Assembly: GCA_010015585.1 (NCBI GenBank)
Contig: ML975156.1
From: Eremomyces bilateralis CBS 781.70
Taxonomy: Eukaryota
Length of the DNA stretch: 64,000 nt
Reading direction: 5' to 3' (one strand)
This document shows, in pieces, positions 13,686 through 64,000 of the stretch. The notes below the pieces were generated by a model. That model did not search any database, was not told the DNA's origin, and saw only the letters and a list, made by a program, of their open reading frames with translations. A program made the translations under genes and the position numbers. Numbering within the stretch: position 1 is the stretch's first letter; each line of letters begins with the position of its first letter.

Positions 13686-14152
13686 CGTATCTGCATTGAA
13701 TTTATTAAACTGAATGACAACATAGCGGGGTGATGGATCCAAAGGTCCCACATTGCTCGGCTGTGTTTTGATATGGGACTCCTCGGTTGTGGCGTCAGGG
13801 GTAAGTCTATACTATTGGGACTAATGGTACGCCAGAGCACCACCCCACCAAATATTTAGACATTCAACACCACCTCTGGGCACTTGTAGACTACTACATT
13901 TCATAACACCACAGTTGGAAGCAAGGATTCGAATGAAGTATTTCTCTTGATGATTCTGCTTCGCGATAGTCTTATAGTCGAGTTTGCTCCAATTTGTTGT
14001 GGGCCATTGAATATCCATTTCTAGCGGTGTGTCCTGTTGTGCTGCGTTCTCGATTCTCGCACGAAATATGTCTCGATCTGTTGGTGCCCCAAATCAATGA
14101 CAAGTCAGATTGTTTTATCAATAACGTTTCATTTCAAGGTGATAGCTTGTAG

Positions 14153-15992: not shown

Positions 15993-16717
15993 AGCCTAGC
16001 GAAGTTCAAAGCATGACGGACCAGACAACGCGCCAAATTATCATACAAAAAAAGTCCTTCAACAGGGCTAGTATTCACTCTTCCATATCCAGGTTTTCAC
16101 AGCATCCAAAATGGAACGGTTTGAATCTCTTCATACACTAATCTATTTCGTCTATTCAAGTGGGTCTTCACCGTTGGATGCCCTCCTCCGGCTTACGGAA
16201 AAGAGGATTCTATTTCGTTTATTTCAGCGAGTTTTTGGCCGTTGGATGCCCTCCAGCCCACGGCAAATCAGGGTTGTATCAACTTACTAGCCTAATAAGG
16301 GAAAATCCTATATCTTTCGATAAGTAGGAAGCAACGGTATAGGCCTTTCGGCACCCCGAGGATAGGATTCCATGTCCTCAGTTTCTTCCAATTCGAATGT
16401 AACAAACTATAATTTCCTACCTTACTGTGTGTTGTTCTTAAGTTGACATTTTACCAGTATGCTGGTGACTGTGGGTATCTGCTAGTTTCTATCGACTCAT
16501 CCACTTGATGTAGTTATCATGATTGTCCACATGCATTATTACTGATTCATTATCACAAACAATCTTCATCATCATGGATGTTGAATATTTAATGTACTCT
16601 AACTTCAGAACTTCCCCACTTTCTTTTCTTCTGCCAAAACATGTTCTGCTTCTCCGACATTCTGCAGACTTGCTTTTTCCAACCTCACTTCTGTAGAACT
16701 TGTCCAATATCACAAGG

Positions 16718-16787
16718 CGTTCCCTCTCCAGCTTTCCCTCTCTAGCTTTCCCTCTCCAGCTTTTCCTTTCCAGCTTTTCCTCTCCAG
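16718..16787 (+). repeat. Tandem repeat, 5 x 14 bp (CTTTYCCTYTCYAG)
   Basis: Units at 16718 (degenerate), 16732, 16746, 16760 and 16774, read directly. Confidence 0.85.
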
Positions 16788-18652
16788 ATTTCCGTTGTTT
16801 CTGACTAGGCTTTGCTTCCCAAAGCGTACAATCAGCACGATGAGTACCCCACCTCGGAGACCATCCCAGACTGGGCAACCCCCCTTCATCGTCTCAATGC
16901 GATCGTCACAGAGTCCTCGTCCTCCTCAAAGTCCCGGTCATGGCAATTCTTCGCCCTCACCATGTCCCGGTTCTTCCTCATCGACTCCAAGACCATCCTC
17001 ACAGAGTCCTCAGGCTGGTGCGTCGATCTCGCCACCATCAGTGACAAATTGCGAAGTCGGCCGTGAGATGATCATCGTAATTCCTTCTGTCAACAGGACT
17101 GAACCCGGGTAGTTTCGGTCGAAGCCGGTTTTAACTACTCGCAGATTCATCGCCGCGCCAAATTGTCCTTGTCGAGTCGAGAAAGTGACTCCAAGTCCTC
17201 GAGAATGGGATGAAGCTTGCGTAAAAGCGTTTGGGCTTCTATTGTATAGAAGCTTAGCACCATATGCTCATGTTTGGCGGTCGACACGGCGTGATGGAAG
17301 GCCCTCGAGAATCTGATCTTGATTTTTCGCTTCGTCGCAAAACCACCAGGGCATGGAATGTTCCGCAACGATCGTGACCATTTTTTAGAAACTGGCCCGG
17401 AATTATTGCGCATCTGGGCTGGTCACGTCGATAGCGAAAGCCTTGCTCCCAAGTCGGATCCTTTTTGGAACTCGGGTGCATTGTGTGAAACCCACTCCAT
17501 GTGAGCGAGGCAGATTTTTCTTCGAATCTGCTTCGCGGCCTACCATCTCCGTTTTAGGCGCTCGAGCGCTATGAACTAGAGGGTCAATATTTTCTCTATC
17601 TCGAGAAGCAAACCTTTTTTTTAGGAGTGGACAACAAAACTGAACACAAGGACAGGTCTTCTAAAGAAAGATGGAATCCTGGATGCACCCACTTCCGAAC
17701 AAAAACGCAAAGCATGGAATACTGGGTATTCTGTATAGTTTGAGATTTGAGCATCCAGAACTTGCGTATACGACTGAAACCCACTGCGTGAGGACGTAAC
17801 ATCAAATACAGCTAAGTCTCACCGAATCTCATAGTTGGGACACTATTCCGAAGCATGAATTTGATGTGCCAAAAGAAGAAGATTCATGGTACGGCTGGGA
17901 AAGGCTGTCCTTTTGAGGAGGGGAGGGCGAGAAGAAATTACTGAAAATAGGCACTGAAATTGTTTGATGGAGCTGAATTGCAAACGATACTCAAGCAAAT
18001 CGATTCGTGACTCAGGTTATGAATGAACAACAGTTCGGTTGGAACCTGAGAGGATGACGTACCAGTCCAGCCTATGTCACGGAACGCTACACCGATCCGC
18101 CTTGAGATGCAAGTTATATAAAATCAGTTGTAGATTTGAAGATTTGGAAACCCTGGTAGACTTCAGGGCCGTCAATTCCCTCTCCCATCTCTCTTGCGGG
18201 TTGAAAAGGTGGCATCGCCGACCGACTCGGCGGAGAGGATTTCTCAGCTGAGCAGCGGAAGAGCGGGATGAGAGCTGTTGTAGACCGCAAAGGGTTGGAT
18301 GCTGACCAGGTAAAATGAAAGGCTGCTAGACATCGCTGCGACATAGGTCAGGAAAGGAACGTGGGACAAGTGGAATGACTTCGAAGCTCTTTCAAGAGGT
18401 GATTGGTATGACACTATGCTGTGAAGCCACGCCTCCGACAAAAGGGCGTCTCAGCACTATTGAGGCCGGTGGCCAATATTTGACTGCTTTCCGCTCTCTG
18501 TCCGCCGCTTTGCGGTCGGGTTCTGAGCCGTTTGCTCAGTGTTTGTTGTATGCGCATGAATCGCTGACCCCAACCGCCCACCAAAATAGAATGACCATGA
18601 ACACCAGGGAACGCCATTGATGCGTCCTTGAAGGCATTGCAGAGCATCCACT

Positions 18653-30129: not shown

Positions 30130-31172
30130 CTACGATCTAGCCAGGCGACCACTCCGTCGAGGTCGGCCGGATTCCGTCGCGGCCGGTTTCTTCGGCTTCT
30201 CTTTCTTCTGCCCACTCTTCTCCTGAGCCGGCCTTCCTCTTTTCTTCTTTGAGCTTTCATCGTTAGTTCCGGATGAATCCGTCCTCTGCTTCTTTGCTGC
30301 GGGTTTTTCTTCCTTTTCACCCTGGGCTTCCGAGCGTGTCCCATTGACATCCTCCACATCTCGCTTCTCGCCGGTCTTTGGGGTTTTCCCAGTTTCAATG
30401 CTCGGGCCGGCTCCAATTTGGTGTGGAAGCCCGCCAGACATGCTCACATCCTCTTTATCCGTCTCCTCCGCAGGCTTGGCCTCTGAAATGTCTACTACTC
30501 TTTCTACGAAAGTTGCCTCAGGGACTGTCTTAACCCTTTCCTCGAAAGTTTCCTTGACCACCTCGGACCATTCTTCATCATTATCGGTCGTCTCAATCAC
30601 AGATCTCTCTGCAGGCTTGGGGGGCAAGTTTCCCACCGGCTTTTCCATGATAGGTTGCTCGGGCATTGTCTCAGTCCTTTCCTCGAACGTTTCCTCGAGC
30701 CTTTCCTCGGACCATTCTTCATCTTTATCGGCCGTTTCATCCACAGGTCTCTCCGCAGGTTTGGCCGGTAAAATTCCCACTGGATTTTCCACGAGAGGTT
30801 CAGGCATTGTTCCCAGCCTTTCTTCGAATTTTTCCTCAAGTTTCTCCTCGGACAATTCCTCTAGGGGCTGGCCGGGCCTTTCCTGGGACATTTCCATGGT
30901 TTGCTCGAGAATTTTCTCCAGTATTTCCTCCGACTTCCCCTGCTCCTTGTCATCCAACTCATCGGAGGTGTGACCATTTGCTTTTTGCTCAATTTCAAGT
31001 TCATGAGCTCGCTTGAAAACGTCGCTGCCGGGTCGGGCAATGCGAATTGCAGGATCATCCAGATCGACATCCCGGCTGATAGTGTCGCCTTGGTTTGATT
31101 GAAGGGCAAGTTCGGCTTCTCTAAGGACATCTGCGCCTTGCCCGGAGGGCTCTCCCCCACCCCATTTCCAGG
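30130..31172 (-). CDS. Hva1 Tudor-like (DUF2945-like) domain fused to acidic repeats and a basic AT-hook-like tail; first exon unresolved
   Basis: Reading upstream in the frame of ORF 30130..30957 gives SWKWGGGEPSG...GDTISRDVDLDDPAIRIARPGSDVFKRAHEL, preceded by a CTGAC...CAG acceptor. About three ~48-aa Glu-rich repeats follow, then KKKRGRPA. Confidence 0.6.
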
Positions 31173-42487: not shown

Positions 42488-42671
42488 TGTCGGAAATCCA
42501 CGGCTATTACTTAGTCATTGCACCTTGTAGATTACATAAGATTACATAAGCTTGGGTATATATACCCGTCAAGGTAAACTATCTACTTCTGACCGAATAC
42601 AAGCATCTCACTGCCTCTGAACAGGTATCCTATTGTTTCTGTGATTGATTGACACGCCAAAACGATCAACA
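42488..42671 (+). mobile_element. Solo LTR, family A, copy 1
   Basis: TGTCGG...ATCAACA, about 184 bp, near-identical direct copy at 48442-48624. Contains TATATA. Flanks GGATT/CGTTG, so no TSD. Confidence 0.8.
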
Positions 42672-44215: not shown

Positions 44216-44358
44216 CTTGTTGGATATCAACCATCCTCTAGTTACCTCAGCAAGCTCAGGCTATTTGTGGTCGTGCCTGAGGCGACTAACCACACTATAC
44301 CTAATCGATAAATGCAGTTCACGAACAAATAGCCTGAGGATCGGGCAGGATCCTGTCA
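44216..44358 (+). repeat. Repeat family B, copy 1 (LTR-like TG...CA, internal hairpin)
   Basis: Inverted copy at 46368-46495; the first 46 bp are identical. Internal 14-bp inverted repeat at 44255-44268/44325-44338. Confidence 0.8.
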
Positions 44359-44364
44359 ATGGTA

Positions 44365-45911
44365 CGGAAGTTCCCTTCAAAAGTTTTTGCCCACGCTAAA
44401 TACGCCACTTTCTTGGCAGTCCCACAATACCAGCCGAGGAATCCTAAGTACATCGAATCTGTCCTTCATCGCTCCTATTTTGAATCTTATCAAGTCTCTC
44501 TCACGTTACGAAATGCCTTCAAATACTGACACCGCAACACAGGCGCTCATTGTTACTCTTAAGTCACCTATTGGGGGAAAAACAACAGCTGAAATCGCTG
44601 AAAAAACGGGTCTTCCAAAGCGTACAATTAATGCTATTTATGCCCGTGCAATTGAGCGGGGATTTGACCCTAATCATCTGCCTCTGCATATTAGAGACGA
44701 ATGGCTAGAAGATGCACCCCGTCCCGGCCGGCCCAAAAAACAGACGGAGGAGCTATCGAATACCGTTCTTACCAAAGTGCGTCAGGATCGATATGGAAGG
44801 GAGAAGACTTGCGCTGATATCGCGGGCGAGCTTTGTAGAGGCGGTTGGATTGTCTCCGAGTCTACCATCTGGAGAGTGCTCAAGAAAGCCGGCTTCAACA
44901 AGACGAAGCCGACGAGGAAGCCTGGATTGACGAAGAAGATGAAAGCTGAACGGTTGAAGTTTGCGAAAGAGCACGAGCATTGGACACTGGAAGATTGGAA
45001 AAACGTTATTTGGAGTGACGAGACAGCTATCGTATTACTCCACCGGAGAGGTAGTTATCGAGTATGGAGGACGAAAGACGAAGCGCTTGCAAAGACCTGT
45101 ATCCGGGAGCGTTGGAAAGGATATACAGAATTAATGTTCTGGGCCTGCTTTACGTATGATAAGAAAGGCCCTTGCCATTGCTGGATGCCAGAAACGAAAC
45201 AGGAGAAAATCGATGCGGAAAAGGTATTAGAAGAGATGAACGACTTGCTTGAACCTATTCGTCGAGACCAGTGGGAACTTGAGACCGGTATGAGGAGGAT
45301 GGGACTCCGGAATCCCTCTAGAAAGCCAATCTGGAAATGGACGCAGAAGACAGGGAAACTAGTTCGACAGAAAGGAGAAGGAATCGACTGGTATCGATAT
45401 CAGACAAAGATATTAATTCCGAAGCTATTTCCTTTCGTAGAGGAATGTCTGAAGGATCGGCCAGACACGATTGTTCAAGAGGATAAAGCTCCGTCGCACG
45501 CCCATCATGCACAGCAACGAGTATACGATTTGTACGGAGTACAGCGACTTCTTTGGTGCGGGAATTCCCCAGATCTAAATGCTATCGAGCCATGTTGGCC
45601 ATACATGAAGAGAGCGACGACAAGAAAAGGTGCTCCAAAGAATAGGCATGAAGCCATTAAAGCCTGGGAAGCTTGCTGGGAAGGACTCCCGCAGGAGAAG
45701 GTACAGGCTTGGATTGAGCGGATTCCACGACATATTCAACAGATAATTGAGCTAGAAGGAGGAAACGAGTATAAGGAAGGGAGAGACCATACGAGAAAGG
45801 ACTGAGATAACGCGAATGGGGAGGACTTAGCCATTAGTACATGTATCCTAATTAGGAATGGTTTTATTACGGGGTCTTGGCGTGGGCAAGAACTTTTGAA
45901 GGGGTCCTCCG
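44365..45911 (+). mobile_element. Complete Tc1/mariner DNA transposon, 1547 bp
   Basis: 35-bp TIRs (44365-44399 and 45877-45911, 5 mismatches) flanked by TA on both sides (44363-64, 45912-13). Confidence 0.93.
44513..45805 (+). CDS. Tc1-family DD34E transposase, uninterrupted (430 aa)
   Basis: N-terminal HTH, a PGRPKK linker, WSDET, and QEDKAPSH-(34 aa)-SPDLNAIE. Confidence 0.93.
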   Translation: MPSNTDTATQALIVTLKSPIGGKTTAEIAEKTGLPKRTINAIYARAIERGFDPNHLPLHIRDEWLEDAPRPGRPKKQTEELSNTVLTKVRQDRYGREKTCADIAGELCRGGWIVSESTIWRVLKKAGFNKTKPTRKPGLTKKMKAERLKFAKEHEHWTLEDWKNVIWSDETAIVLLHRRGSYRVWRTKDEALAKTCIRERWKGYTELMFWACFTYDKKGPCHCWMPETKQEKIDAEKVLEEMNDLLEPIRRDQWELETGMRRMGLRNPSRKPIWKWTQKTGKLVRQKGEGIDWYRYQTKILIPKLFPFVEECLKDRPDTIVQEDKAPSHAHHAQQRVYDLYGVQRLLWCGNSPDLNAIEPCWPYMKRATTRKGAPKNRHEAIKAWEACWEGLPQEKVQAWIERIPRHIQQIIELEGGNEYKEGRDHTRKD

Positions 45912-46507: not shown

Positions 46508-47878
46508 TCAAATGACCCGCTGAAGAACTCCTGCCTCCACAAGCCTCTGCTGAACTTCCAAGCTCATCAAACTCCGTACCCTCTCCAACGTCTGTCTAAG
46601 TCTCCAATACCTCCTATCCTCATCTTCCCCAGCACTCCCCCACTTAGCATGCAACAGTTCCTTGATAGCCTTTCCCTCGACATCGTTCGCTAGTTCCGTC
46701 AAGCAGGGTGTGCAGCACGAAAGATATTCCCCGTCCCAGAAGTAGAACTTTCCGCCCCATAAAGGGTAGAGATTATCCAGTGTGAGGAACTTGCGGCATT
46801 TGTAGCAAGGAAAGCAGGCGCCTGGGAAGCCCTCCGGAGCAAGTGCGGCGATGATGAGACGCTGGCGGTGACGCCTCTTGACAGTAGGAAGTAGAGAATG
46901 GCGGTCAAAGAAGTCGGATGGGGCAATGAGCTCTGGCAGGTGCCAGAAGTGCTTGCAGGCGCGCTTCAATGCCCACTGAGCTTCGACGCTGGCTTTGGCA
47001 TCATCATACAGAGCCGGCAAGTCCTCGATTGAGTCGGTGTTAAGATGCCGGATGATCTGGTGGTGAAGCTCTATGGGCAAAGACATAAGACAGGCTGATG
47101 CACAAGGGTATGTAACCCTCCTGATCTCGATCTCTGGGCTAGGTTGTTTAGAATCTAGTCCAGCTGTCTCCGCTTCATCCTTGATTATTTCCCGTCCCTT
47201 CTTGACCTCGACGTTCCGGAGCTGCAGGTCATCATCCTCTAGTTCATAATCCGATCCAAAATTGCCGATCGCAAACGCTTTCTTCAGAAACACATTGAAG
47301 AACCTGTAACGCTCGGTGCTGGTTTCATACTTGCGGTAGGCCTCGACAAGGCCGTCGAACGAGACGAGCGCAAACCCCTGACGGTAAGCCCAGATCTCCA
47401 CTTGCCGAAGCTCCTGTCCAACAGTTAGATATCAAACTCGAAAAGGTCGCACAGACGTATATGTTCGAGTTACAAAATCAATGAAGTAGGCCCACTCGCA
47501 TCCAAAACGGTCGAGAAAGCCGGTTTGGTCAGTCAGGTGCTTCAACTTCCCATCCAAGATTTCGAACAGCGCTGCGGTGCCCTGTGTTGTGTACAGTACG
47601 TCGCCCCAGCTGCTGTGACCGCGGGTTCTGCCGCCGAAGTTCTCGTAGTTGTACCCGTATCGCTCGTAGATTTCGACTAGCTCTGTTGCCACTGGAGATT
47701 GATGTACATCGACCCAGGTAAGCTTGTCAACAAGTTTGGCAAGGTGAGCAAGCTCTGCCAGGCTAGTTTGGGCGAGAAATTTGGCGACATCGAAGGCGAG
47801 GTCGTAAGAGTCATAGTGGTTATAAGAACCTTTGCGTTGGTCTTTCTTGCGAAAGCCGAGGATGCCGCTAGTTCCCAT
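46508..47878 (-). CDS. Hypothetical protein: MGTxG...YNHYDSY N-terminal domain fused to an F-box-like motif and Cys-rich tail
   Basis: ATG at 47878. A phase-0 intron at 47414-47473 (GTAACT...CTAAC...CAG) joins WAYFIDF to ELRQVEIW. F-box-like CLMSLPIELHHQIIRHL...LKRACKHF; CYKC...CCTPC. Confidence 0.65.
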
Positions 47879-48441
47879 AGTTGATGAATCGTTGCTAGAA
47901 ATGAAAGCCGTCTCTAGTATTTCACTTGTCCTAATCCTACGGACTGGACTCCTGGAGCAATTCCGGTCAGTCCCATCCACAGTACTCAAATACACATAGC
48001 GAAGAGGAGTGATTAACGGTATATAGAAGCAGAGGAGGGCCAGGAAAGGCCTGACAAGTATATAGATGTAGAGCAGCTAACCGAGCTATTAGTAAGGTGC
48101 AGCGGTTCAGAGCAGAGGAAGCGGAAGCAGCTCTGACGGGAGCGGCTTGATTTCTGAAAGCGAAGGGCGGGAGCACCCTATTTATAGCTGTACACTGCCT
48201 GCCACTAGAGTAAGGCGGCTGGGACTGTCCATGAATTAACCAATCAGTCAACCAATTAATCAATCAATCACCTGAAGCACCGGGACACCTGAGAGACCGG
48301 AACACTTTTTATACTGACACCCGACGTACTATGACGTCCCCTGCACCCTATCCTCGCCAGACAGGACCCGTTCGTGGCGGTGCTCGTATATTCAACATGG
48401 ACGCTCGAATTCAAAAAGGGTCAGTTTCCTGGTGTCCCAAT

Positions 48442-48624
48442 TGTCGGAATCCGCGGCTATTACTTAGTCACCGCATCTTGTAGATTACATAAGATTACAT
48501 AAGCCTGGGTATATATACCCGTCAAGGTAAAATATGTACTTCTGACCGAATACAAGCATCTCACTGCCTCTGAATAGGTATCCTATTGTTTCCGTGATTG
48601 ATTGACACGCCAAAACGATCAACA
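48442..48624 (+). mobile_element. Solo LTR, family A, copy 2, followed by a partial related copy (48625-48658)
   Basis: Direct repeat of 42488-42671 with flanks CCAAT/TATAT. The next ~34 bp repeat the internal TATATACCC..CAAGGTAAACTATGTACTTCTG segment. Confidence 0.8.
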
Positions 48625-49316: not shown

Positions 49317-51045
49317 AGTCAAAGCACCCAGTTTCCGGTCATCCCAGTTTCCGGCCACCACAAACAATCCATTTGATCCACGTATTGCCCTAGAGTTACA
49401 CAAATAGAACAGCCACCATATATATTTCTATACATCTAGTTCAAATACAGAGCATAAGTGCTCGAATCTAGATTTGCGTGCTCTGAAATCCTCTCCGCCT
49501 TTTCCGCAGCTTTCCGCTCCGCTTCTTTGGCCGCCTCCTGCAACGCAACGATTTGCTCAATTGTAGCAAATCTTTCGTTCAAATCAGGCTAGACTCGTTT
49601 CCTTTTCCTCGTAGTCGAACCACCTAGATCTTGAATAGTTTTTTCAAGTTGTAGAACGTGTGCTTTAAGTGCAGCGATTTCGGTATTCTTCTCCGCCAGG
49701 GACTTGGCCAACTTCCCCTAGAATCCCCCGAAGTCTCGCGATGATATTCCCTCAAACTTTTGCTTATATATGTCCTGTAGCCCCTTTAGTATGCTATAGG
49801 TATACGGAATTAGTTTAGGGGTCACACGACTGGGCATTACGGTGTGAATTTCGTTCAATTACGAAACTATTTAATACTTTGGCTGGGTTAAAGGGCACCA
49901 TTCCTGTTCCACGAAACCCTGCACGTATGTTATGCGAATTTAGAGCCGTATTTCGAGATTTATAATATATTTCTATAAAATTATGCTTCTTAACTGGTGC
50001 AGAGTCATCAAGCGAAGATAGGCGGCTCAGTTCTTTATGATATCTTGATTTCAGGGGCGAAAAGCATGCAATATCTAAAGGCTGGAGGACATGGGAAGAA
50101 TGGGCTGGCAAACATAAAATAAATACCTTACTATCTTTCGCCGACTTCATGAGCTGGATCTTAGCATGCGTACCGTGCCCGGCGCATACCAAAAAGCGCT
50201 ATTCTCGGGAGTCTTCTCCTCCATTTTGGTTCAGGGGTTTGGCCTCCCGTAAGAACTTTTTCTCGAGCCATTATAAGCCAATTTCGTTGGATGTCTAGGC
50301 AATTTCTGAGGACGTATAATGCCAGTTCGGGATATCGCGAGAAGGGAACTACGTCGACTGCAGAGATTTGCCTTTAAGGATAATCAGGGGCGTAATTGAT
50401 CGGCCATCTGCATATATGTATTCTAGGATAGAGACCCATTCTCTATCTTTAGGAATCTTCACGTATATCGTGTTCTTCTTCCTCTTTTGCTTCTCCTAGA
50501 CTGGTGTAATTACGCGGCCATTAATTCCGCACCCTAGGGCGATGCTATGCTCATTAAAATTCCACTGGTTATTGGTTTTAATGTTATACCTTTCGATAAT
50601 GCGTGTATAAGCCGAAAAGAACTCCGAAATAACATCTTTTGTGGCAGAATTTATTCTAGAAGCCTCGATCGTCCGTCCGATAATCGTTTCTTACCTCAGG
50701 ATTCCGGAGTAGAAACCCGTCGGTCTAATTTGTGCCGCAGGGAGTGTTATCTCTATTTTCTTTCGCAATCAGTTCTGCCATTTAGCGAACCTGGGCATGC
50801 GAAGGGGCCCTCCCGCAAAGGTCTTCTTCCGTAATCCACTAGACCAGCCATTTTTCTTGATCTTTTGACAACTTTTGCAACTTCTCGGCCCCTTTTTGAT
50901 AGGATTCGGTGCCCTTTTAGATATGTTCTTAGAGAGTAGAGTACTTAACGCCATAAGCCTCCGCAAATTTGTGAATCGATGGGAATTCTCGATCTCAAAA
51001 AGCTTATATAGCTTCAGCAATTGCACTTTCATTTATAGGAGGCAT
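49317..51045 (-). pseudogene. Fot1/pogo transposon relic, RIP-degraded
   Basis: TA followed by a Fot1-like TIR AGTCAAAGCACCCAGTTTCCGGTCATCCCAGTTTCCGGCCACC at 49317. DDE_1 motif LCLPAHSSHVLQPLDIACFSPLK; HTH remnants near 51000; many TAA/TAG stops. No second TIR found. Confidence 0.85.
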
Positions 51046-52039: not shown

Positions 52040-53526
52040 CTACTCGAGGGAATTGCAAGGGCCTATTGCTGGAACTTTTTAGATCCACTTCTGGCTCCCA
52101 AAAATGGGGAAGCTTGTTGGACGATGTTTTGGGACAAAATCTGTACCCGACAGCAAGCAAGGAAACACAGTCTTGTTACATGACTGATATTGGCCTGATC
52201 CGTGTTATTATGCGCCGCCTCTCTAAAGGTTACCACTTGCGCTTCGTCTTGGTCTCGTTGCCGCAGTCCTCCTCATTACCGTATAGCTATTGTCGCCGGT
52301 GCCATTACCATCAGAGGCGTCCGAACTCTCGCCTCTCTCTGAATCGAAGGGTTGCTGATGAAACCGTCGGCACAAGCGATTGCGCAGTACTGTTGCAACT
52401 CCAAGCAGGGCCAAGGTAATATCCTTTGCTGCTCCCCGGCAACGCAAGAAATTCGCCAACCAGACTCCCGCAAATACAGCTTCAACCTCGTCTGCTTCGA
52501 GCGGAACGAGAAGCTCTGTGTTCTTTCCAGTTTTAGCACCCGAATTTGGCAGGCAGCTCATTCACCATCGCCGCGTTTGCGAGCGATTTGAAAGAGACGG
52601 ACACTTGCTGCGTCATGCGCCATGATGGTGCCTACTACCGCTGTCAGCTCTACTATGAAGCAAGAAAATAAGATATGGCCATAGAGTGCCCCTAGCGGAG
52701 CCCTCGAAGTTGAAACCCCCGACAACCTCAATGATCACTCCAGTGCAGTGGACGGGATTCAGTCTGTTAGCTTGTCGTCCTCTGATCTAAAAGAGAAGAG
52801 CCGGGACGCTTTCATACCAAATCCATCAATCTCCAAACCCCGGCTGTTGCTCCGTTTGATTGCGTTGGTTGACAGCTCTGCTCGGCCAGCCTCTGGCCGT
52901 TGGTCCTCTACAACACGGTTCGTCGCTTCAAACGTATTTACCTAATTACAAGCCTGACTGATCGGCATTTCTATCTAGAAAGAGCCTAGTACCGGTCATG
53001 CTTCTATAGAATGCTTATCAAATCTCTAAACTCCGACAATTTCAGCGGTAAGTTGCCGGCTTCGTTTCAATGCCTCAGCGATGACGGGTACGGTCTCGGA
53101 AGTGACCATAGAAAAGGGCAGCAAGATGGTTTTCTAATAAATCTATGCCAGTTCCCGCCGCTCGCCGAAAGTGCATTTCCTATTTCGGAGTTACCAGCCT
53201 CTGTGTGTAAACGGATCACCTCACCGCTACTGCGCTCTCCCTTTCGCTAGGCGACGGAATTAGTTATTCCAGAGATTTGGGCCGATAATTCAAATCAATA
53301 GAACAAACGGAGCAACGTGCAATCCCGTTTTTCACTCTGCTTCCGTTCAACACTTTGGGAGGCTAATCATGAATCTAGCTTGTAACCCTATGATATAAAG
53401 GTCACCTGCTGGAAGGAAGACCAATTCTCATGGCGTAAATGGGAGCTTTCATGATTCTTAGCCGTTGACCTAATCGGCCTCGTTTTCCCTGATCAGTTTC
53501 CACATTTGGTTTTCAATCACCCCAAC

Positions 53527-55805
53527 ATGACGGGCCCAGGGTCAAAAATCAGCGGTATAGCCGATCCGGCGCTCCTGAACAAAGTTGACAAACTGTTTGC
53601 GAGCGGAGTTGGAGAATACGTATCTCTTCCGCAGATTGTAGCCGTCGGAGACCAGTCCAGCGGTAAAAGTTCTGTTCTTGAAGCATTAACCGGCCTGCCT
53701 TTCCCAAGGGACAGTGATCTCTGCACCCGGTTCGCGACGCAGATCAGGTTCTGCCGGGCACCAAAACCGGAGATTTCGATCTCCATCATTCCGGCCAGTG
53801 GTAGTAGCGGGGAGCACGTCGAAGCATGCACCGCCTGGTCAAAGTCCGGCCTCGAGGACCTGGACCCAGAAACATTCTCTAGCATCATGAGAGAGGTTCG
53901 CATATCCATCTGGGTTCTATCCACGGCTAACGTCTTTAGGCACATACAATTATGGGAATCGATGGCGGAATCACCTTCTCCGACGACGTGCTCCGCATTG
54001 AAATATACGGGCCGGATCAAGAGCACTTTTCGGTTGTTGATGTCCCCGGAATCTTCAGAAAGACCACCGAAGGGGTCACGACCAAAGCGGACAAGAAAAA
54101 GGTCGAAGCGATGGTCCGGCGATATATGGAGAATCCCCGGTCTATCATTCTGGCGGTCGTTCCTGCCAATGTGGACATTGCAACACAAGAGATCCTGACA
54201 ATGGCCGAGGAGGTGGATCCAGATGGACACAGGACACTTGGGGTCCTGACCAAGCCAGACTTGGTCGACAGAGGGGCTGAATCGGCGTTGATTTCCCTTG
54301 TTGAGGGCAAAAGGCACAAACTGACCTTAGGATGGTGCATTGTTCGCAATCCTGGACAAAGTCAGCTCGAGAATTCATCTGTCAACCGAGAAGCAATTGA
54401 GACGGCCTTCTTCCAGGACAACCTTCCTTGGAACACTCTTGAGAAGGACAGAGTTGGCATCAGTTCTTTGCGGCTTCGACTGCAGGAGATCCTCGCCAGT
54501 AACATCCGTCGCGAGTTTCCAAAGGTGCGTCGAGCCCCCGGCGTTCTGAAGCGATGCTAATCCTGCCGCAGGTCAAATATGAGATCCATAAGAAGCTCAA
54601 TGCCCGCAGAAAGCTTCTCGACAACCTGGGCGCAAAAAGAGAAACGGCGGACGAACAGCGTCAATACCTTTTGGGTATAAGTGAACGGTTCCAAAAATTC
54701 GTGATGTCCGCACTCTCCGCAGATTACGTGGGCGATGATTGGTTTGATAAGTTCCCAAACCTTCGTTTCGCTACTGCGGTTGTGAACCGCAATGAGGCTC
54801 TCGCGAAAATGCTGGCACAATACGGTCACTCGTATATTTTCGACAGAGAACGACGCGTCAGCGCAGAGGACGGAGATCAATGCGACAGCTCAGAGGACGG
54901 AGATGAAAATGACGAAGAAATCGAACGGCAAATTTCAGTCCGAGCCCAGGAGGACCCCGAGGGCTTGGACGAGCTGCCGCCCGGAGAGAACACGATAGTC
55001 AGCCAAACTCCTCGGGGTATTTTTAAGTGGCTATCAAGAGTCTACGAGACGTCGCGTGGTTTTGAGCTCGGTACCTTTGATGGTTCACTTCTTGCTATGA
55101 CGATGAAGACTCAGTCGTCTAAATGGGAGCCAATCGCCGTCGGTTACATCAATGATATCATCAGTATGGCGCATACGTTCGTCCGAGACTTATTGCATCT
55201 GGTCTGCCCGAATCTCCGCGTGTGGGAAGGTCTCATGTCGGTCCTCATGGATGAGCTCTTGGCGAAGTATAAAGCTGCGCTCGGCTATGTCCGTTTCCTC
55301 CTCCATGTCGAGAGGACCGGAACGCCAGCGACTCTGAATCACTACTTCGCCGATAACCTGGAAAAGTGGTAAGTCTATACATCCCGTTTTTGCATCAGCC
55401 GCTTATGATTTTACCAGCCGCCAAAAGCGCATTCGCGCCGATCTGCAAGAGAAAACCTTCGCCGATTGCAGCCACGGCGAAGTTGTCCGCCTCGAAGACA
55501 TTGTGCAGAACCATCACACGTCTAATGTCGAGCATGTCGTCCAAGAGATCCATGACATCCTCGAATCCTACTATAAAGTCGCTCGTAAGCGCTTCGCGGA
55601 TAATCTGTGCATGCAAGCAGCGGACTACCACCTCGTGACAGGGCCTTGCTCCCCGCTGAGATTCTTTGGCACGGCTTTCGTGAGCAACCTGTCCGAAGAA
55701 CAATTGATGGATATCGCCGGGGAAGATGCCGCCTCACGAACGAAGCGTGCTGCTCTGACCAAGGAGATTGCAGATCTTGAAGCCGGAAAGAAAATCGTAT
55801 CCTAA
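53527..55805 (+). CDS. Mx-like dynamin-family GTPase, ~712 aa, intact
   Basis: G1 GDQSSGKS, G2 CTRFAT, G3 DVPG, G4 TKPD and a GED-like C-terminus (YYKVARKRFADN). Introns 53896-53939, 54525-54571 and 55369-55417 restore one frame. Confidence 0.9.
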
Positions 55806-56225
55806 TTTTGGACTGCATGTACTGTAGCAAGGCAGTTCGGTGTTTGAGTACTCCGTAAGTTAGCATTAGTTATCCCTTCTTTTGGTAGTTTTTGCTTGGA
55901 TGGACCGCCTGTTGTGAATGGCGCATATTTAGCCAATCATTTGTAGCAGACTATCTTCCCCGCTCTCCGCCAACCGGTCACGACTTCCTTGCTCCTGCAC
56001 AGTTTGTATTGACATGTTCCGGTGCAATGTCAGTTCTAGTTGAACCAAACCTACCACGCTCTGGTTTAGTACACCATAACGGGCGCCTTGCAGATTAAAG
56101 ATAAAGGAGTGGCATCCAATGGCAGCTATCCACGTTACTCATTACCCTTATATTTCCAATTTATACAAGACATTTAGCTGGCAATCCTTTCGCAGTGCTT
56201 CTCACGACCATTTCCTTCATTTGCC

Positions 56226-57558
56226 ATGTCTAGTCAACCCGCAATATCACCAAAGTTTCTAGAACGCTGGAAAGATGTTCATAATGCTGTCACCACATTC
56301 TCCCAAGTTGCAAAGTCGTTAAATGAGGTCGAAGAGGTTATGATCGAGAGGAGAACACTGGGTGATCAAGTAAAGCGGCTGGAGACGGAAAGGTCCGAGA
56401 GTGCTGGGGAGGTCGCCTCTCTTAAAACAACACATACCGTCCTGATCCAGCAATTTGAGTTAAGGTACAATAGCTGGGAGCTTGAACGCAAGGAATTACG
56501 AGAGCAATACGAAGACGGGAAGCGAAAAGGCCAGCAAGAGCTTGATGATATTAAAAGAGAATTAGCTGCAAGGGAAGGCCAGCTTCGAACCGCGCAGTCT
56601 AGTATAGTAGAGAAGGATGTAAAAATTCTAGGTTTGGAGAGGAGCCTACATGAGGCACTGAACGAACTACGAGATATTAGAGGCGCTATCGGGTTAATAG
56701 ATCTGGACGAGAGTTTGTCAGTATCGGACTCCCACGATATGCGCATTTACTAACGTTAGGGGTTGGCAGTTCCGGCCAACTTTCGGAGATATCGAGCACG
56801 CTGCGGGCGATAGCGCAAGATTTTTTCTTTACAACCCTTCCAGAGAAAAATATGGTACGCGAACCCTTTATGTGATATCTTTAACTAACCTCGTCAAGGA
56901 TACACTGTATCGCCAGCTTCGACAATCTCGTTTCATTGCTCGTCCATTCGTGATACCAATATCTAACAGCATTCCTTCTCAGCACCTCAGGATGGTCGCC
57001 GCACAAGCTCTTATTGCCCGGCAACTTTCAAACAAGATCTTTCGCACTATCCACGTTTCAGAGTCTCCCACACCCCGAGACTTGGACAAGATGTCGACCG
57101 AGTACCCCCTACGTGGCACGGTGTTTCGTGCTATGCACGCGACTGCATTTAATGAACAAGAGAAAGAGCTGATAGACAACGATATTGAAGAAATCACAGA
57201 CAATCTCATTAGAAGTACTCAACCTCTTGTTTCTGACAGCGAAAACCTTAAAATGAGGCTTCGAAAGCTTTTCAAGGATGCGTTATGGCTTTGGCAATAC
57301 GCGAGAAGAAACATAGAGAGAGTCTATTGCTCTATAGACAGTGTAAACTGGAACCATTGCGAAGAGTATCAGAGTCCCACCATTACCAAAGAACGCGACT
57401 TACCAAAGGTGCGGACTTCTGATATAGTTTTGTTCCCTTGCATACATTTGCGGTCAGGTCGCAAGCCTTTCCATCCTGGCTATGTTCTTCGGTCTGACAA
57501 TCCTCTTCTGATGCTAGGTGCGATAGAGGCTACGGAGCAGGATTCTCATGTATCGTGA
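56226..57558 (+). CDS. Coiled-coil protein of unknown function, ~411 aa, intact
   Basis: About 150-aa heptad-rich N-terminus. Introns 56717-56769 and 56855-56898 give a continuous frame into a helical C-domain (IPISNSIPSQHLRMVAAQALIARQL...VLFPCI...HPGYVL). Confidence 0.7.
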
Positions 57559-57774
57559 TCTCCTTTGGGCACACAGGGTAAGGGAAAGTTAAGACTAGCT
57601 TCGAGGGCATATTCAAGGGACAATGCAGCTTTGGCCAGACATCTATTATGTATTTATCTACTATTCTAGGCTCTCCGTTTCAGGGTAACAGTATGTAAAC
57701 GTCGGCTCCGAGATACACTTTAAGAGCCATGCAGCGCAGGTTCACAATATATCCTTCTGGATATCACTGTCTCA

Positions 57775-57962
57775 TGTCATGGGCCCAAACCACGAAGGAT
57801 TTGGTAAGCTGGTAACGCTGTTGAATTGCTAAAGAGAGAAGGAGAAGATCTCTCTTACTGCGATCTGCTATTTACATCTGTGGGCAAACGGTCTACCCAT
57901 CCCTTCTGCCTTAGGCTGCAAGGCCACAACACACAGACTGGGCGAAGCCCAAGACTGTCACA
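57775..57962 (+). mobile_element. Solo LTR, family C, copy 1, with 5-bp TSD
   Basis: TGTCA...GTCACA, 188 bp, flanked on both sides by TCTCA (57770-57774, 57963-57967). Confidence 0.93.
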
Positions 57963-59058
57963 TCTCATCCACATATGTCAAAGAAAATGAGACTTGCACG
58001 TCCGCGTTTAGGTCGCACGACAATCAAGTCTTGCCGCTTCTAGATGATTTATAACTGTTGCATCAACTACTCCAGATCTTAACTTGAAGGGCAGTTGACG
58101 AGGATAAGAATCGGATAATTAAACCTTGGGGGACTGGCCGTCCAGGGGCAGCGGGGTAAAGGATGTGTTCCGAAATCCATTAACCTAACAACCAGTTTCC
58201 TGGATTCTGAAAATGGTAATTTACAGACTCCTATTTATTTCATTTATTTCTTACATCCACCCTAGCCATGCGGTCGCGTCCTACAGTGACGAGCAGAGTC
58301 GGTTTCCAGTTTTACGCTTCAATATGATCTCGACGTACTGTCGCATTACGCGGGGGTGATGATTAAGCAAGTTCGCTGCTTAAGCTCAGTTACCGTACTG
58401 TATAGACACAACGCATGTTGATATTGACGATTCCCATTGTATCCCCGAGTGTGTTTTCGCTAGCTAAACCGTTGAAAATAGGTGTGATGGATCAGAGGTC
58501 CGCAGACCTGGATGCCTTGTGGCCTTGTGGCCCGTTTGCTCTGTAAACACCAGAACAGATAAACGCCTCGCACACCTTAGATAGATTCCTCCTTCATAGC
58601 AACAATTCAATGTTTGCCTCACGATTGGAGATTCCCGACAGTGAGACTCTTACAATAGGCAAATACATAGGAGAAGAGTGAGCAGTCCTAAATAGGCTTA
58701 GCCTAGGGGTAATGGGCAGAGAAAGGAATATTGCGTGGTAGTAGAAACGAACAGGGACATCCTGCGACACATACAGTCCTCCTGGCAAGGGATACGCATC
58801 CTATTTCGTATTAGTGCATTGCAGGGTGAGACTGCGCCATCCGCTGCGCCATGAGCTCTTTTGCACCTTCACACCAGTCCTTGTGTGGACGATGCCAACA
58901 GGTAATAGAACCAATAATGTGGAAGCTGCGTTTTCCCTTTTTCATCACACTATCCCCCCACGTAGTACCAGTAATTATATCCTTTCGCTGAAGATATTCT
59001 TGAGAGAACTCAATCCCCCTAGCGACTTACGTTCGGTTCTTTAAAACCTACCCTCGCT

Positions 59059-61095
59059 ATGCGGCAGCTTAGCAGTGGCCCCAGCGGCAGCTTCCGCCTG
59101 ACCCACTTCCCCAGCGACAGTATTCCCAGCTATGCAATCCTTTCGCACACCTGGGACGCGGATGACCAGGAGGTTACATTCCAAGATATTACGAATACCG
59201 TGGGAACCAGCAAGACAGGCTATAGAAAGATCGAGTTTTGTAAGGAGCAAGCAAAGAAACATGGGCTTCAGTATTTCTGGGTGGACAGCTGCTGCATCGA
59301 CAAGTCAAGTAGCGCCGAGCTCACAGAGGCTCTTAACTCGATGTTTCGCTGGTACGGGGATGCAGCAAAATGCTATGTGTATCTCTCAGACGTTTCAACA
59401 GGAAAGCACACCCGGTCTTCTGAGCTCCCATGGGAACCGGCGTTTAGGCGGAGTCGATGGTTCACCAGAGGCTGGACACTACAGGAGCTTCTTGCTCCGC
59501 GATCAGTCGAGTTTTTCTCCCGAGATGGCAAGCGACTTGGTAACAAAAAGTCGTTAGAACAGCAAATTCACGAGATTACTGGGATTGCAATTGGCGCACT
59601 TTAAGGACATCTGTCTCAATTCAGCAACGATGAGCGAATGTCATGGGCAAAAGAGCGAGAGACCAAGAGGGAAGAGGATCAAGCATATTGCCTCATGGGA
59701 ATCTTTGGCGTCTACCTACCGGTCATCTATGGCGAGGGGAAAAGAAACGCACTCCAACGGCTTCGAAAAGAGATCGAAGAGGGTTCAGACGATACGCGAG
59801 GTAATTCAACCGCAAGTTTTTATGGTTAGCGGACTAATCTGCAAAGTGAAATGGAACGACAAGGAACTAAACTGTATGCAAGCCCTGCGTAATTCAGCTT
59901 CCGACTACGAGCAGTTCAAGGACCGGAACTCTAGCCGACTTAGAGATACCTGCCAGTGGGTTCTCCGTCATGACCATTTCCGAAACTGGAAAGACAGCAG
60001 CTCCTCAAGTCTTCTTTGGATATCTGCGGATCCTGGATGCGGAAAATCAGTTTTCTCTAAATCTCTTCTCGACGAAGATTTCAAAAACACGGACGCTGGC
60101 ACAACTTGCTACTTCTTTTTCAAAGATGACAATGACGTACAGAAAAGTGCAGTTGCAGCGCTTGCGGCACTACTCCACCAGCTCTTTCGGCAGAAACCAA
60201 CACTTATCAAACACGCTATGCCGGATTTCGCCGCTAATGGACATCAACTTTCTCAATCATTTCATATACTCTGGAGTATTCTAATAAAGACGGTGGCTGA
60301 CCGGAATGCCGGGGAAGTCTTTTGCGTCTTGGATGCCCTCGACGAATGCGCAGAAGGAGGGCAGTATCAGATTATTAACGCTCTCAGTTCATTCTACCAG
60401 CAAGCAAGCTCCGGAAACAATGCATCTCGACTCAAAATATGTGTCACTAGTCGTCCTTACCCAGGCATTGAACGGCGCTTCACCGATCTTACTTCTAACT
60501 TTCCTACGATTCGGCTGCACGGCGAGCAAGAATCAGATATAATCAGTCATGAGATTGATCTAGTCATCAAATGGAGAGTATCTCAACTCGGATCTGAGCT
60601 CAAACTCAATAATTCAGAACAGTCAAATCTCGAAACAGAGCTGTTGAGCATGAGCCACCGAACATACCTCTGGTCAACACTCATTTTCGATATCATTCGC
60701 AAAATGATTCGACCGACAAGTCGGAAACTAAAGGCAGTTATTAGTGGCCTTCCGTCCACAGTTGATGAAGCATACGAAGCGATTCTTACAAAAATCGAGG
60801 AGGACGATCGACCACAAGCACGGAAATTGCTCTCTATCGTTGTTGGAGCAACCAGGCCTCTTACACTAACAGAAATGAACATCGCTCTAGCTATAGAAGA
60901 CCGCCATCGCTCCTTCGACGACCTTGAACCTGACCTTGACGATGAAGCGAGGTTTGAAGCGTCGGTGAGACACCTCTGCGGGCTCTTTGTGACTGTAGTG
61001 GATCGAAAGGTCTATCTGATCCATCAAACTGCAAAAGAATTCCTTCTCGCGAAGAGTGAGGCCGCTGCTATTGGATATAAATATTCTCTTGTTCT
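59059..61095 (+). pseudogene. HET-NACHT NLR-like gene with a premature stop, truncated by an LTR
   Basis: HET domain (YAILSHTW, FWVDSCCIDK, SRWFTRGWTLQELLAP). In-frame TAA at 59602-59604; intron 59801-59846. NACHT Walker A ADPGCGKS and Walker B VLDALDE; the winged-helix IHQTAKEFL is followed by the LTR at 61096. Confidence 0.88.
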
Positions 61096-61283
61096 TGTCA
61101 AGGGCCCAAACCACGAAGGATTTGGTAAGCTGGTAACGCTGTTGAATTGCTAAAGAGAGAAGGAGAAGGTCTCTCTCACTGCGATCTGCTATTTACATCT
61201 GTGGGCAAACGGTCTACCCATCCCTTCTGCCTTAGGCCGCAAGGCCACAACACACAGACTGGGCAAAGCCCAAGACTGTCACA
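61096..61283 (+). mobile_element. Solo LTR, family C, copy 2 (no TSD)
   Basis: Near-identical to 57775-57962; flanks GTTCT/CAAAG. Confidence 0.9.
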
Positions 61284-61812
61284 CAAAGTAGAGTTTGTAG
61301 AGGTTGACTTTGATGCGGATCGATTTGATACGGGAAATTCCAGCAGTCCTCGATATCCGTTACTGAATATATGATCGAGAGTTAGTTTCGTCCTGTGGTT
61401 CGGCGCCATATTAGAGGACTGCGTTAAAATGTGACTGCACGCGATCGTGAATGTCCCAGCGCCTCTGCGTGGATCACGAGACTTGATGAGATTAGTGAGA
61501 TCAATCCCGACTAGAACGCCTCGTCACTTGTGATTCGACGCCATTAATCGGCAACAGCCGTAGTTCTGTCCAACCGACCAGCCAGACGCATGCATTAGCG
61601 CCTGGTCAGGTCGCAAAGCGCAAGGCTGAGGTCGCGGAGAACAAGCTGCGAAGTGACCGGAAAACGAACGCAGCCTTATAATGGCCTTTCTCTGCCGTTA
61701 CGGTCGTCGTCCTTGTCCGACTCAACTCTAGCTTCTTCGTTGACCTAGGCGAACCGCACAACCTGTCATTCTACCCGCCCATCTGCTGGCCTAGCGCGCT
61801 TCCCTCCACACC

Positions 61813-63038
61813 ATGGCATCCCGCAACTCTCTCGACAGCCCCGACTCCTATGCGGTCGCCTGGATCGCAGCTCTTCCCATCGAGCGGGCCGCTGCAGAAG
61901 CAATGTTTGACGAGGAACATGCTCCTCCAACTGGCTTCACTAGGCACCAAATCGACGCGAACCGTTATACATGGGGTCGTATGGGAGAGCACAACATCGT
62001 TATCGTCTCCCTTGCCGCCGGAGACTATGGAACCACCTCGGCTGCGTCCACGGCCTCGAGCCTGCTTGCCTCTCTGCCATCCATCCGTGTTGGTCTTCTG
62101 GTCGGCATAGGCGGTGGCATCGCACGACCGGACGATGACCGCGATATCCGGCTCGGCGACATTGTCGTGAGCCAGCCCGATGGGACTGCAGGCGGCGTCT
62201 GCCAGTACGACTTGATTAAGGCAAAGCCTGGTAACAGGCGTGAGCGCAAAGGCTTCCTCGGACGGCCTCCGACGGTTCTCCTCAACGCGCTTGCCAGCAT
62301 CCAGGCCGATCACGAGCGGAAAGACTCCAAAGTTCCCTACTTCCTTCAACAGATGTTAGAGAAATACCCGAAGATGGGCAAGAGATCCAAGACAAGTCCT
62401 GGCTATACTCACCAGGGCTTCGACAAAGACCGCCTCTTCAAAGCTTCTAGTGGCCACGTCTCCGGGTCGGACTGTCGGGGCTGCGACGCGGCTGGCGACG
62501 TTCAACGCGATCCTCGAGACACCACCGACCCCGATATCCACTACGGGACTATCGTATCCGGCAACACGCTGGTCAAAGACGCCGCTGCGCGCGATCGGAT
62601 TATTGCCGACGTCGGCGAGGATTGCATCTGCTTTGAGATGGAAGCAGCCGGCCTGATGAACCACTTTCCCTGTCTTGTGATCCGAGGGATCTGCGACTAC
62701 GCCGATTCCCACAAGAACGATCGATGGCAACGTTACGCCTCGGCCACCGCCGCTGCGTATACTAAGGAGCTCCTGGCGTACGTGCCGGTCGCGGAGGTCC
62801 AGGAGACCAAGAAAGCGCTGGAAATGCTTCAATCAGGTTAGTAATCCATATCCTCCGACAGGGCCCTGGCCTGGCGAATAAATAAGGCGGAGTAATAATA
62901 TCACGTCGAACATATTCTGACCTGCCTTAGTTGAATAAAAAATCGATAGTATGCAGTAGACCATAGGTGTAGCGAAAATAGCCACTGATTCTATCCAGGC
63001 CGACCTTCGTACCGAGAAGATCGAGCGCTGGCTTCGCC
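61813..63038 (+). pseudogene. PNP_UDP (nucleoside phosphorylase) NLR-like gene: intact effector exon, broken downstream
   Basis: YAVAWIAALPIE, LLVGIGGG, DIRLGDIVVS, CFEMEAAGLMN and IRGICDYADSHKNDRWQRYA. Intron 62837-62930. Exon 2 has TAA (62936) and TAG (62957) and ends ...TEKIERWLR at an LTR. Confidence 0.88.
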
Positions 63039-63568
63039 TGTTATGGTTCCAGGCCTGTGGCCTGTCTCCTGAATGATAGTCACGTGACTAAGTCAACTGT
63101 CGAAGTCTTGGACATTGCGCACGCGTCGTAGATAGCTCTTCTTCTTTAGCTTTGCAATAAATGAAAGTGGTTCTCGTAACTTCTGCGATCAAACCGTCTC
63201 ATCTAGGTCCAAATATGCTATTGAGCCGCTAGGTTCGTCCTTAAGGGTTGCCCTTTATAAGGAAGACGAACTCTAGTTCCTTGCTGGCGCCAGCGTTCTA
63301 TTTATAATTCGGCCAACAGGCTGTCACTTCGTTATTATTGGCGCGGCGCGTGTAGCATACTTCTGTTAACAAGATCTACTCGGCGCTGGGAGTCTTGGTT
63401 ACATTAATCCTGGAGCCCAGGTTGTTAAGGCAATTGGGAACGGAGTTTTACGATGGACCGAGGTGTCTTTGATCTAGTTATAGAAACTGGAGAGCTATAA
63501 GTCAATAAGCGGAGCATGTTTGATATTGAAGCTTGGAAGTTCAGAATCTTGAAGTAATGGCTAGTTCC
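63039..63568 (+). mobile_element. LTR-like sequence (63039-63201, family D) plus degraded adjacent sequence
   Basis: Abrupt junction with the NLR exon; TGTTATGG...CCGTCTCA with AATAAA; TA-rich sequence without ORF follows. It is single-copy here, so the boundaries are inferred. Confidence 0.5.
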
Positions 63569-63756
63569 TGTCGTGGGCCCAAACCACGAAGGATTTGGTC
63601 AGCTGGTAACGCTGTTGAATTGCTAAAGAGAGAAGGAGAAGGTCTCTCTCACTGCGATCTGCTATTTACATCTGTGGGCAAACGGTCTACCCATCCCTTC
63701 TGCCTTAGGCCGCAAGGCCACAACACACAGACTGGGCGAAGCCCAAGACTGTCACA
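63569..63756 (+). mobile_element. Solo LTR, family C, copy 3 (no TSD)
   Basis: Near-identical to copies 1 and 2; flanks GTTCC/CAGGC. Confidence 0.9.
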
Positions 63757-64000
63757 CAGGCAGATATTTACAGCGACGGTCGCGCCAACCACCGACTATG
63801 GTGCTCCGATCTGGTTCCCAGGCTCCGCAGGGACAGTAGCCCGTCATATCGAGAGGGCCACCAAACTGGGGGCGAGCGCAATCACGGCCATCTTCAGGTC
63901 CGCGGCGTACGACGTGGTAACTGGCGAGGCCGGGATCGAATCAGTCCAGGATAGGCTCTACGAACTAACGAGGAAACACTGGATTAAGATGCATACGAAA
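63757..64000 (+). mobile_element. Non-LTR retrotransposon (Tad1-like LINE) ORF2 fragment, post-RT region
   Basis: The open frame from 63758 reads RQIFTATVAPTTDYGAPIW...KLGASAITAIFRS...EAGIESV..R...HWIKMHT, resembling the region C-terminal to the RT of fungal LINEs. It is not in the ORF track because it has no start codon. Confidence 0.7.

Follow-up and report, generated by a model that had tools for sequence, protein, structure and literature searches.

Genes with a proposed part in fungal conflict and in the recognition of non-self have been described from several directions. The MxF family of Mx-like dynamins, comprising MxF1 and MxF2, was described in 2025 as present in 0-5 copies per genome and as functionally uncharacterised (Langley et al., PNAS 2025, PMC11789081). 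Across 37 genomes of Sordariales, 26% of the NOD-like receptor (NLR) genes (2,349 in all) belong to clusters, whose members are by definition <40 kb apart with <8 intervening genes (PLoS Genet 2025, PMC12258605). In Podospora, NLR genes are associated with transposable elements (TEs), and NLR pseudogenes arise through stops, frameshifts and TE insertions (GBE 2026, PMC13449251), while in Neurospora the HET-domain genes cluster with lineage-specific genes (PLoS Genet 2023, PMC10684091). NLRs with HET and NACHT domains are typical cargo of the mobile elements known as Starships (bioRxiv 10.1101/2021.12.13.472469), and it has been hypothesised that fungi possess counterparts of bacterial defence islands, which could then serve guilt-by-association searches (iScience 2023, PMC10197012; Cell Death Differ 2025, PMC12881547). 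NLR clustering, the formation of NLR pseudogenes by TEs, the occurrence of HET genes among orphans and the idea of a fungal defence island are all, then, already in print. Here we examine a group of four genes in Eremomyces bilateralis CBS 781.70 (assembly GCA_010015585.1, contig ML975156.1), encoding an Mx-like dynamin, a coiled-coil protein, a HET-NACHT protein and a Pfs (PNP_UDP) protein. They lie in a stretch of 64,000 nucleotides, which we refer to as the window.

A sequence-only reading of the window had proposed that these genes form a co-oriented defence island whose unannotated neighbours become candidate immune genes. Our analysis points elsewhere: the region is probably an ordinary TE-rich accessory region, apparently bordering on a block of housekeeping genes (Utp21, a Lyase_1 enzyme, a glutaminase) that lies before 44 kb, and it would contain a duplicated, intact MxF paralogue, an expressed, lineage-specific orphan coiled-coil gene and the decaying remnants of two NLR genes, one of HET-NACHT-(ANK) and one of Pfs-NACHT-ANK type. 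Much of the descriptive part of the earlier proposal was borne out. Four consecutive + strand genes do run from 53527 to 63037, Pfam confirms the dynamin, HET, NACHT and PNP_UDP calls, a helix model over residues 9-160 supports the coiled coil, and the families named do figure in the discussion of immunity and allorecognition in fungi (PMC10197012, PMC12881547). The functional part did not hold. A defence island implies several functional defence genes clustered together, and of the four genes here two are whole (the Mx-like dynamin and the coiled-coil gene) and two, both of NLR type, are broken. The shared orientation is of little weight, because with random strands four genes would be expected to be co-oriented by chance in 1 of 8 cases.

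The evidence consists of the 64-kb window itself, protein databases, metagenomic contigs, three public sequencing runs and published papers. Pfam scans covered 12 open reading frames (ORFs) at the four-gene region, 26 ORFs in 38.7-64 kb and 24 ORFs of at least 150 amino acids (aa) in 1-53500. Among the sequencing runs, none of which is recorded as RNA, X3 is taken as a guess to be RNA, it being the sole run with GT..AG joints; for DNA depth, the stretch 55573-57492 served as the single-copy reference (~272).

The HET-NACHT gene carries the domains that had been claimed for it, namely HET (2.1e-13), NPHP3_N (4.4e-43), DUF7069 and GPIID_WHD, and so has the central NACHT/NPHP3_N NTPase and winged helix of a HET-NACHT-ANK NLR. 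Its N-terminal HET effector domain, though detectable, is broken: the frame that starts at the ATG at 59059 meets an in-frame TAA at 59602-59604 (codon 182) inside HET, at a position where a paralogue that is 89% identical (P0241) has arginine. The stop is present in X3 too, as an X3 contig over 59454-59699 is identical to the window. After an intron at 59801-59846, which is seen in X3 contigs, the NACHT and winged-helix part is open, and homology to relatives then ends right past the winged helix ("...KYSL"), near 61091; the frame enters a 187-bp repeat resembling a long terminal repeat (LTR) at 61097 and stops ~30 codons past the winged-helix domain. Ankyrin (ANK) repeats follow this domain in 8 of the 10 nearest relatives (the best 10 of 150 listed representatives), and no ANK, WD40 or TPR sensor repeats were found in the remnant. 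Judged by its reading frame, the gene is a pseudogene, with a stop within HET and its sensor gone.

Two further observations concern this gene. P0241 (538 aa) starts inside the HET domain and ends at the same point past the winged helix ('...WKHS'), which could mean either that duplication involved the already truncated form or that a contig end cut the P0241 gene model. Secondly, X3 alone shows a joint of 62 bases at 60728-60789 whose ends, CT..AC, read as GT..AG on the minus strand; it suggests that a spliced antisense transcript overlaps the NACHT remnant or a paralogue of it.

The fourth gene had been described as a PNP_UDP NLR, a claim that fails for want of a nucleotide-binding domain. 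Its N-terminal Pfs domain is clear (PNP_UDP_1, 4e-10), and in a tblastn search with a 934-aa relative (P0001) residues 1-341 match at 96% identity (61813-62835) and residues 342-377 match at 62930-63037, where homology ends, after the first 377 of ~930 codons. Two stops, TAA at 62936-62938 and TAG at 62957-62959, interrupt exon 2. Residues 378-934 of P0001 are absent from the window, their sole match there being the unrelated NACHT of the HET-NACHT gene at 26% identity, and no NACHT and ANK repeats are found with the fragment in one open frame. In a search of relatives restricted by design to proteins of 610-2000 aa, 117 of the 120 listed have NACHT/NPHP3_N annotations, mostly with ankyrin repeats in addition. 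The deep spliced RNA over this gene would come largely from intact paralogues, because one X3 contig runs beyond 63037 into paralogue-type coding sequence. The window copy is thus best described as a truncated gene that, from its predicted product, is not an NLR.

The Pfs domain is also of interest for its relationships. Its identity is 96% and 93% to two E. bilateralis proteins, 90% to a Fusarium oxysporum protein, 83% to numerous strain-specific entries of Aspergillus fumigatus that lie on short contigs and 82-86% to proteins of Penicillium, Metarhizium and Chaetomium. This unusual conservation across fungal classes suggests horizontal spread, perhaps via a mobile element, because it exceeds the best matches outside Eremomyces for the MxF exon (74%) and for NACHT (73%). 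Literature searches found no publication on cross-class conservation of Pfs.

Both NLR genes end at repetitive DNA. Solo LTRs had been reported between the genes, and three ~187-bp TG..CA copies are indeed found between and after them; a target-site duplication (TSD), however, is present in only one of the three (copy 1), and no full-length element was seen, so that a solo LTR is a plausible but unproven identity for the element. DNA depth is 10,296-39,444 in the two bins holding copy 1 and, with the bins of copies 2 and 3 included, 10,296-53,580. The truncated NACHT gene and the Pfs upstream region meet precisely at copy 2, which has loose contig ends at its edges (61095/61096 and 61284), and further loose ends fall exactly at 63038. 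One contig of the DNA run X1 carries the LTR-like repeat end and 12 letters, then continues from 63039 onward; the start of these 12 letters resembles what we take to be a tRNA primer-binding site. A copy without a TSD is what is expected from recombination between two separate insertions with deletion of the intervening DNA, and copies 2 and 3 therefore fit a TE-mediated rearrangement that joined the fragments. Each NLR gene appears to have been put out of action by stops and cut short where it meets repetitive DNA, and TE-mediated deletion probably helped to bring the two fragments side by side. Repeat-induced point mutation (RIP) was considered as the source of the stops and is unsupported by the dinucleotide indices, the two remnants having no strong RIP signature (TpA/ApT 0.66-0.69; (CpA+TpG)/(ApC+GpT) 1.10-1.28), and we make no claim for it.

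The Mx-like dynamin gene differs from the two remnants in being, as far as its sequence allows judgement, intact and of the published fungal MxF type. The best database match to it, a 712-aa protein from the same strain (P0121), aligns by tblastn as four colinear exons, and the spliced frame is open, with 91.0% identity; the window gene would be a recently duplicated paralogue. Its product has the GTPase, middle/stalk and GED architecture of MxF proteins (Dynamin_N 3.9e-19, Dynamin_M 1.8e-11, GED 1.2e-4) and no other Pfam family, with no PH or proline-rich domain. The GTPase motifs G1 (GDQSSGKSS, residue 41), G3 (DVPG, 157) and G4 (TKPD, 227) are present, the protein is colinear with 33 homologues over its 712 aa, and of the 187 columns in which these agree to 90% or more it keeps 183, the four misses being conservative. 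The closest solved structures are human MxA and MxB (1.9e-31), followed by Vps1 (2.4e-26) and Drp1 (4e-23), as ranked by structure-database matches; within the family, the gene could be of MxF1 or of MxF2 type. Some close homologues are named 'Interferon-induced GTP-binding protein Mx2' in their sources. The protein is predicted to act as a GTP-driven, self-assembling large GTPase, and by analogy with its animal Mx kin, the sole ground for the suggestion, it may have an antiviral role. Four sites in this gene (55284, 55293, 55305 and 55316) have other letters in the X3 contigs than in the window, and as these differences give P0121 residues, the ~91%-identical paralogue would be present and apparently transcribed in X3; X3 cover is absent from the bins 54037-54804, which are uninformative either way on expression.

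Directly upstream of the dynamin start codon there is a spliced + strand transcript (52501-53151) with GT..AG introns at 52918-52978 and 53048-53151, both transcript and introns being seen in X3 only. A protein-coding reading was rejected, as the longest frame is 128 aa with no family match, and the transcript could be the 5' untranslated region of the dynamin gene or a non-coding RNA.

The second gene of the group, which encodes the coiled-coil protein, is spliced in X3, with GT..AG joints at 56717-56769 and 56855-56898 (X3 only), and its spliced frame is open over 411 aa. One X3 contig is exact over 55533-56716, and one spans the 3' end of the dynamin gene through the spliced coiled-coil gene. 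In the predicted structure, residues 9-160 form one helix (mean predicted local distance difference test, pLDDT, 86), too simple a shape for a fold search to mean anything, and the C-terminal 219 aa, with a pLDDT of 36.7 in a single-sequence AlphaFold model, are unusable for such a search. The protein has no Pfam family and no tblastn match in 80 loci encoding MxF relatives, and a search of a set of 5.8 billion proteins, restricted to lengths of 156-499 aa, gave no homologue. It is an expressed, lineage-specific orphan, its expression resting on the presumed RNA run. The earlier suggestion that unannotated neighbours become candidate immune genes finds nothing to work on here, the unannotated neighbour being an orphan without detectable relatives to which guilt by association could be extended.

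The company kept by MxF genes elsewhere was surveyed in metagenomic contigs. The protein of MxF exon 2 was aligned with 33 homologues and used in a scan of JGI/ENA contigs, which gave 591 candidate stretches, 416 of them confirmed, and 80 loci were kept. None of the 80 matches the window coiled-coil, HET, NACHT or Pfs proteins (tblastn, E<=1e-4), while 65 match MxF exon 3, which served as the positive control. From the 32 loci of at least 11 kb, 6 near-duplicates (at least 95% identity over >5 kb) were removed, and the remaining 26 gave 484 stop-to-stop ORFs of at least 130 aa, or 320 once those mostly overlapped by a longer one had been dropped, all of which were scanned with Pfam (E<=1e-6). 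An NPHP3_N/NACHT neighbour occurs in one locus (L043), where a gene with NACHT and a weak HeLo-like domain (12302-14688) lies directly downstream of MxF and co-oriented with it, and PF17111, which we take to be the former Helo_like_N model of STAND (signal transduction ATPases with numerous domains) proteins, occurs in one other (L064). HET, PNP_UDP and NB-ARC occur in none of the 26, and ankyrin-only ORFs in three (L021, L035 and L038). The NLR-type neighbours in 2 of 26 loci stand against a rough expectation of ~7%, calculated from ~56 NLRs per genome (4,613 in 82 species), some tens of HET genes, an assumed ~10,000 genes per genome and ~7 neighbouring genes per locus. Being near this rough chance estimate, the result gives no support for a conserved Mx-NLR linkage, and literature searches, which did not extend to supplements, found no paper linking MxF genes with NLRs.

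Other neighbours were seen in the same survey. An ORF with DUF3723 in L010 (3458-6439) and one with DUF3435 in L012 (5503-6534), both Starship hallmarks, lie within 5 kb of an MxF relative; in L036 the MxF gene has as neighbours an ORF for an OTT_1508-like deaminase and another that is dCTP-deaminase-like (12245-13243 and 4547-5221), and in L038 there is an ankyrin protein whose C-terminus resembles the SsdA deaminase (9275-10669).

These results allow the alternatives to be weighed. The region could be degraded Starship-like cargo, in which the MxF paralogue and the NLR genes arrived jointly and then decayed. HET and NACHT NLRs are typical cargo (10.1101/2021.12.13.472469), the window NLR pieces have paralogues of at least 95% DNA identity and a depth of 800-2,970 versus ~272, the Pfs domain has its high identity to the Fusarium and A. 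fumigatus proteins, and the hallmark ORFs of L010 and L012 lie close to MxF relatives. On the other hand, the scanned ORFs of the window include none for DUF3435, DUF3723, a ferric reductase or a patatin, and no element boundaries were seen in a window that ends at 64000 and so covers one side; we regard such an origin as unlikely. We give similarly little credence to a broader proposal, that MxF paralogues are accessory-genome 'conflict' genes travelling with mobile elements and immune-type genes, the window being a decayed defence island with MxF as its marker. It draws on the 8 of 26 MxF loci that have a mobile-element or conflict-type neighbour within 10 kb, whether NLR-type (L043, L064), deaminase-toxin-type (L036, L038), a Starship hallmark (L010, L012) or another transposon ORF (L003, L035).

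That the locus is a working defence island, with the Mx-like GTPase, the coiled-coil protein, the HET-NACHT protein and a stand-alone Pfs protein acting in non-self recognition and kept together by selection, seems to us very improbable. All three of the named families are of immune type, the MxF gene is apparently intact, the second and third genes yield spliced contigs in X3, and L043 repeats the pattern of MxF followed by an NLR-like gene. The stop at HET codon 182, the loss of the sensor from one NLR and of NACHT and ANK, with two stops, from the other, the lack of relatives of the coiled-coil protein and the near-chance frequency of NLR-type neighbours at MxF loci all speak against it. 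A two-gene module of GTPase and adaptor, formed by the MxF and coiled-coil genes, is hardly credible, for although they are co-oriented 420 bp apart and joined in one X3 contig, such a contig does not establish a single transcript, and the searches described above found no coiled-coil homologue, either of 156-499 aa or at the 80 MxF loci.

Several points weigh against the region being an ordinary TE-rich accessory region with two NLR remnants, the reading we prefer. The presence of two immune-type families and an Mx-like gene within 9.5 kb is suggestive in itself, and L043 likewise has an NLR-like gene downstream of, and co-oriented with, MxF. Parts of the region could be functional, given a predicted Pfs exon 1 free of stops over 341 codons and a seemingly intact MxF gene, although the spliced X3 contigs over MxF carry P0121 residues, so that this RNA is not attributable to the window copy. 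The stops could be strain-specific, because the Podospora NLR pseudogenes are intact in other strains (PMC13449251). The linkage test is small, misses short exons, takes in some distant dynamins (37-43% identity) and was made with a rough chance expectation and no matched control. Finally, the genomic context covered is that of the window, which bears neither on allele state and synteny nor on what became of the NLR halves that are missing.

Table 1. Features of the four-gene region and its surroundings (positions in the window; a dot marks features to which no strand is assigned)
Feature	Position	Strand	Details	Evidence
Tc1/mariner transposase ORF, intact-looking	44333-45805		490 aa	
DDE_1 transposase fragment	49815-50198			Pfam
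Mx-like dynamin (MxF-type) gene, apparently intact	53527..55805	+	712 aa; exons 53527-53895, 53940-54524, 54572-55368, 55418-55805 (stop included)	Pfam, tblastn
Orphan gene with N-terminal coiled coil	56226..57558	+	411 aa; exons 56226-56716, 56770-56854, 56899-57558 (stop included)	Splice joints, open spliced frame
LTR-like repeat copy 1	57776..57962	.	187 bp, TGT...ACA	5-bp duplication TCTCA/TCTCA
Highly repeated stretch between genes 2 and 3	58261..58644 (bin-level)	.		X1 summed contig depth 60,892
HET-NACHT(NPHP3_N)-DUF7069-WHD predicted pseudogene	59059..61096	+		Pfam, frame check
LTR-like repeat copy 2	61097..61283	.	187 bp	No TSD: GTTCT upstream, CAAAG downstream
Predicted 5' fragment of Pfs(PNP_UDP)-NACHT-ANK gene	61813..63037	+	Exon 1 61813-62836 (intact, 341 aa); intron 62837-62930; exon 2 fragment 62931-63037	Pfam, tblastn
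Repetitive TE-derived DNA in place of remaining Pfs gene	63038..63569	.		Depth 4,289-17,277
LTR-like repeat copy 3	63570..63756	.	187 bp	No TSD: GTTCC upstream, CAGGC downstream

The surroundings of the four genes (Table 1) are of two kinds. In the first 44 kb of the window Pfam identifies ordinary genes, for Arf, a Zn2Cys6 factor, GH81, Utp21, a Lyase_1 enzyme and a glutaminase, and beyond these the transposase sequences begin. The highly repeated stretch between the second and third genes has no Pfam match on its ORFs, and a repeated ORF after copy 3, which reaches the window end with a depth of 31,619 over 63637-64000, belongs to no Pfam family. Two pairs of direct repeats were also noted. 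The first, of 177 bp and 95% identical (42495-42671 and 48448-48624), encloses ~6 kb with the glutaminase gene, the Tc1/mariner ORF and two minus-strand ORFs (46508-48076) without a family match; the second, of 96 bp and 82% identical (30561-30656 and 30705-30800, given as 144 bp apart), sits within a minus-strand ORF with a Hva1_TUDOR domain.

If fungi had true defence islands, genes neighbouring known immune genes could be mined for new ones, as has been done in bacteria. This locus offers no such foothold: its NLRs appear dead, its coiled-coil gene is an orphan, and a pairing of Mx with NLR genes is not a recurrent feature of the loci examined. Its value lies instead in illustrating how fungal NLR genes may be broken and juxtaposed by TE insertion and recombination, and it carries the caution that the co-occurrence of domains in TE-rich DNA is not the same as a functional cluster.

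Set beside the described systems, the locus has something in common with each. It resembles prokaryotic defence islands in that immune-type genes are grouped beside mobile elements, but half of its genes are broken, there are no operons, and the small test of 26 loci showed no conserved or enriched co-occurrence. In comparison with MxF1 and MxF2 (PMC11789081), the dynamin shares the Dynamin_N, middle/stalk and GED architecture without any other Pfam domain and has MxA and MxB as its closest structures; that it is multi-copy and apparently recently duplicated agrees with the 0-5 copies per genome described, and an antiviral function in fungi is by analogy only. The two NLR-derived genes, ~0.7 kb apart, fit the definition of a cluster used for Sordariales and have differing N-terminal domains, as in most of the clusters described there (PMC12258605), although the window members are apparent fragments or pseudogenes and the host is not a member of the Sordariales. 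As in Neurospora (PMC10684091), the region is variable and its HET-domain gene has an orphan as immediate neighbour. Podospora (PMC13449251) is to be set beside a window in which no strong RIP signature was found, and the likeness to its NLR pseudogenes lies in TE-flanked genes that have apparently been inactivated by stop codons and TE insertion.

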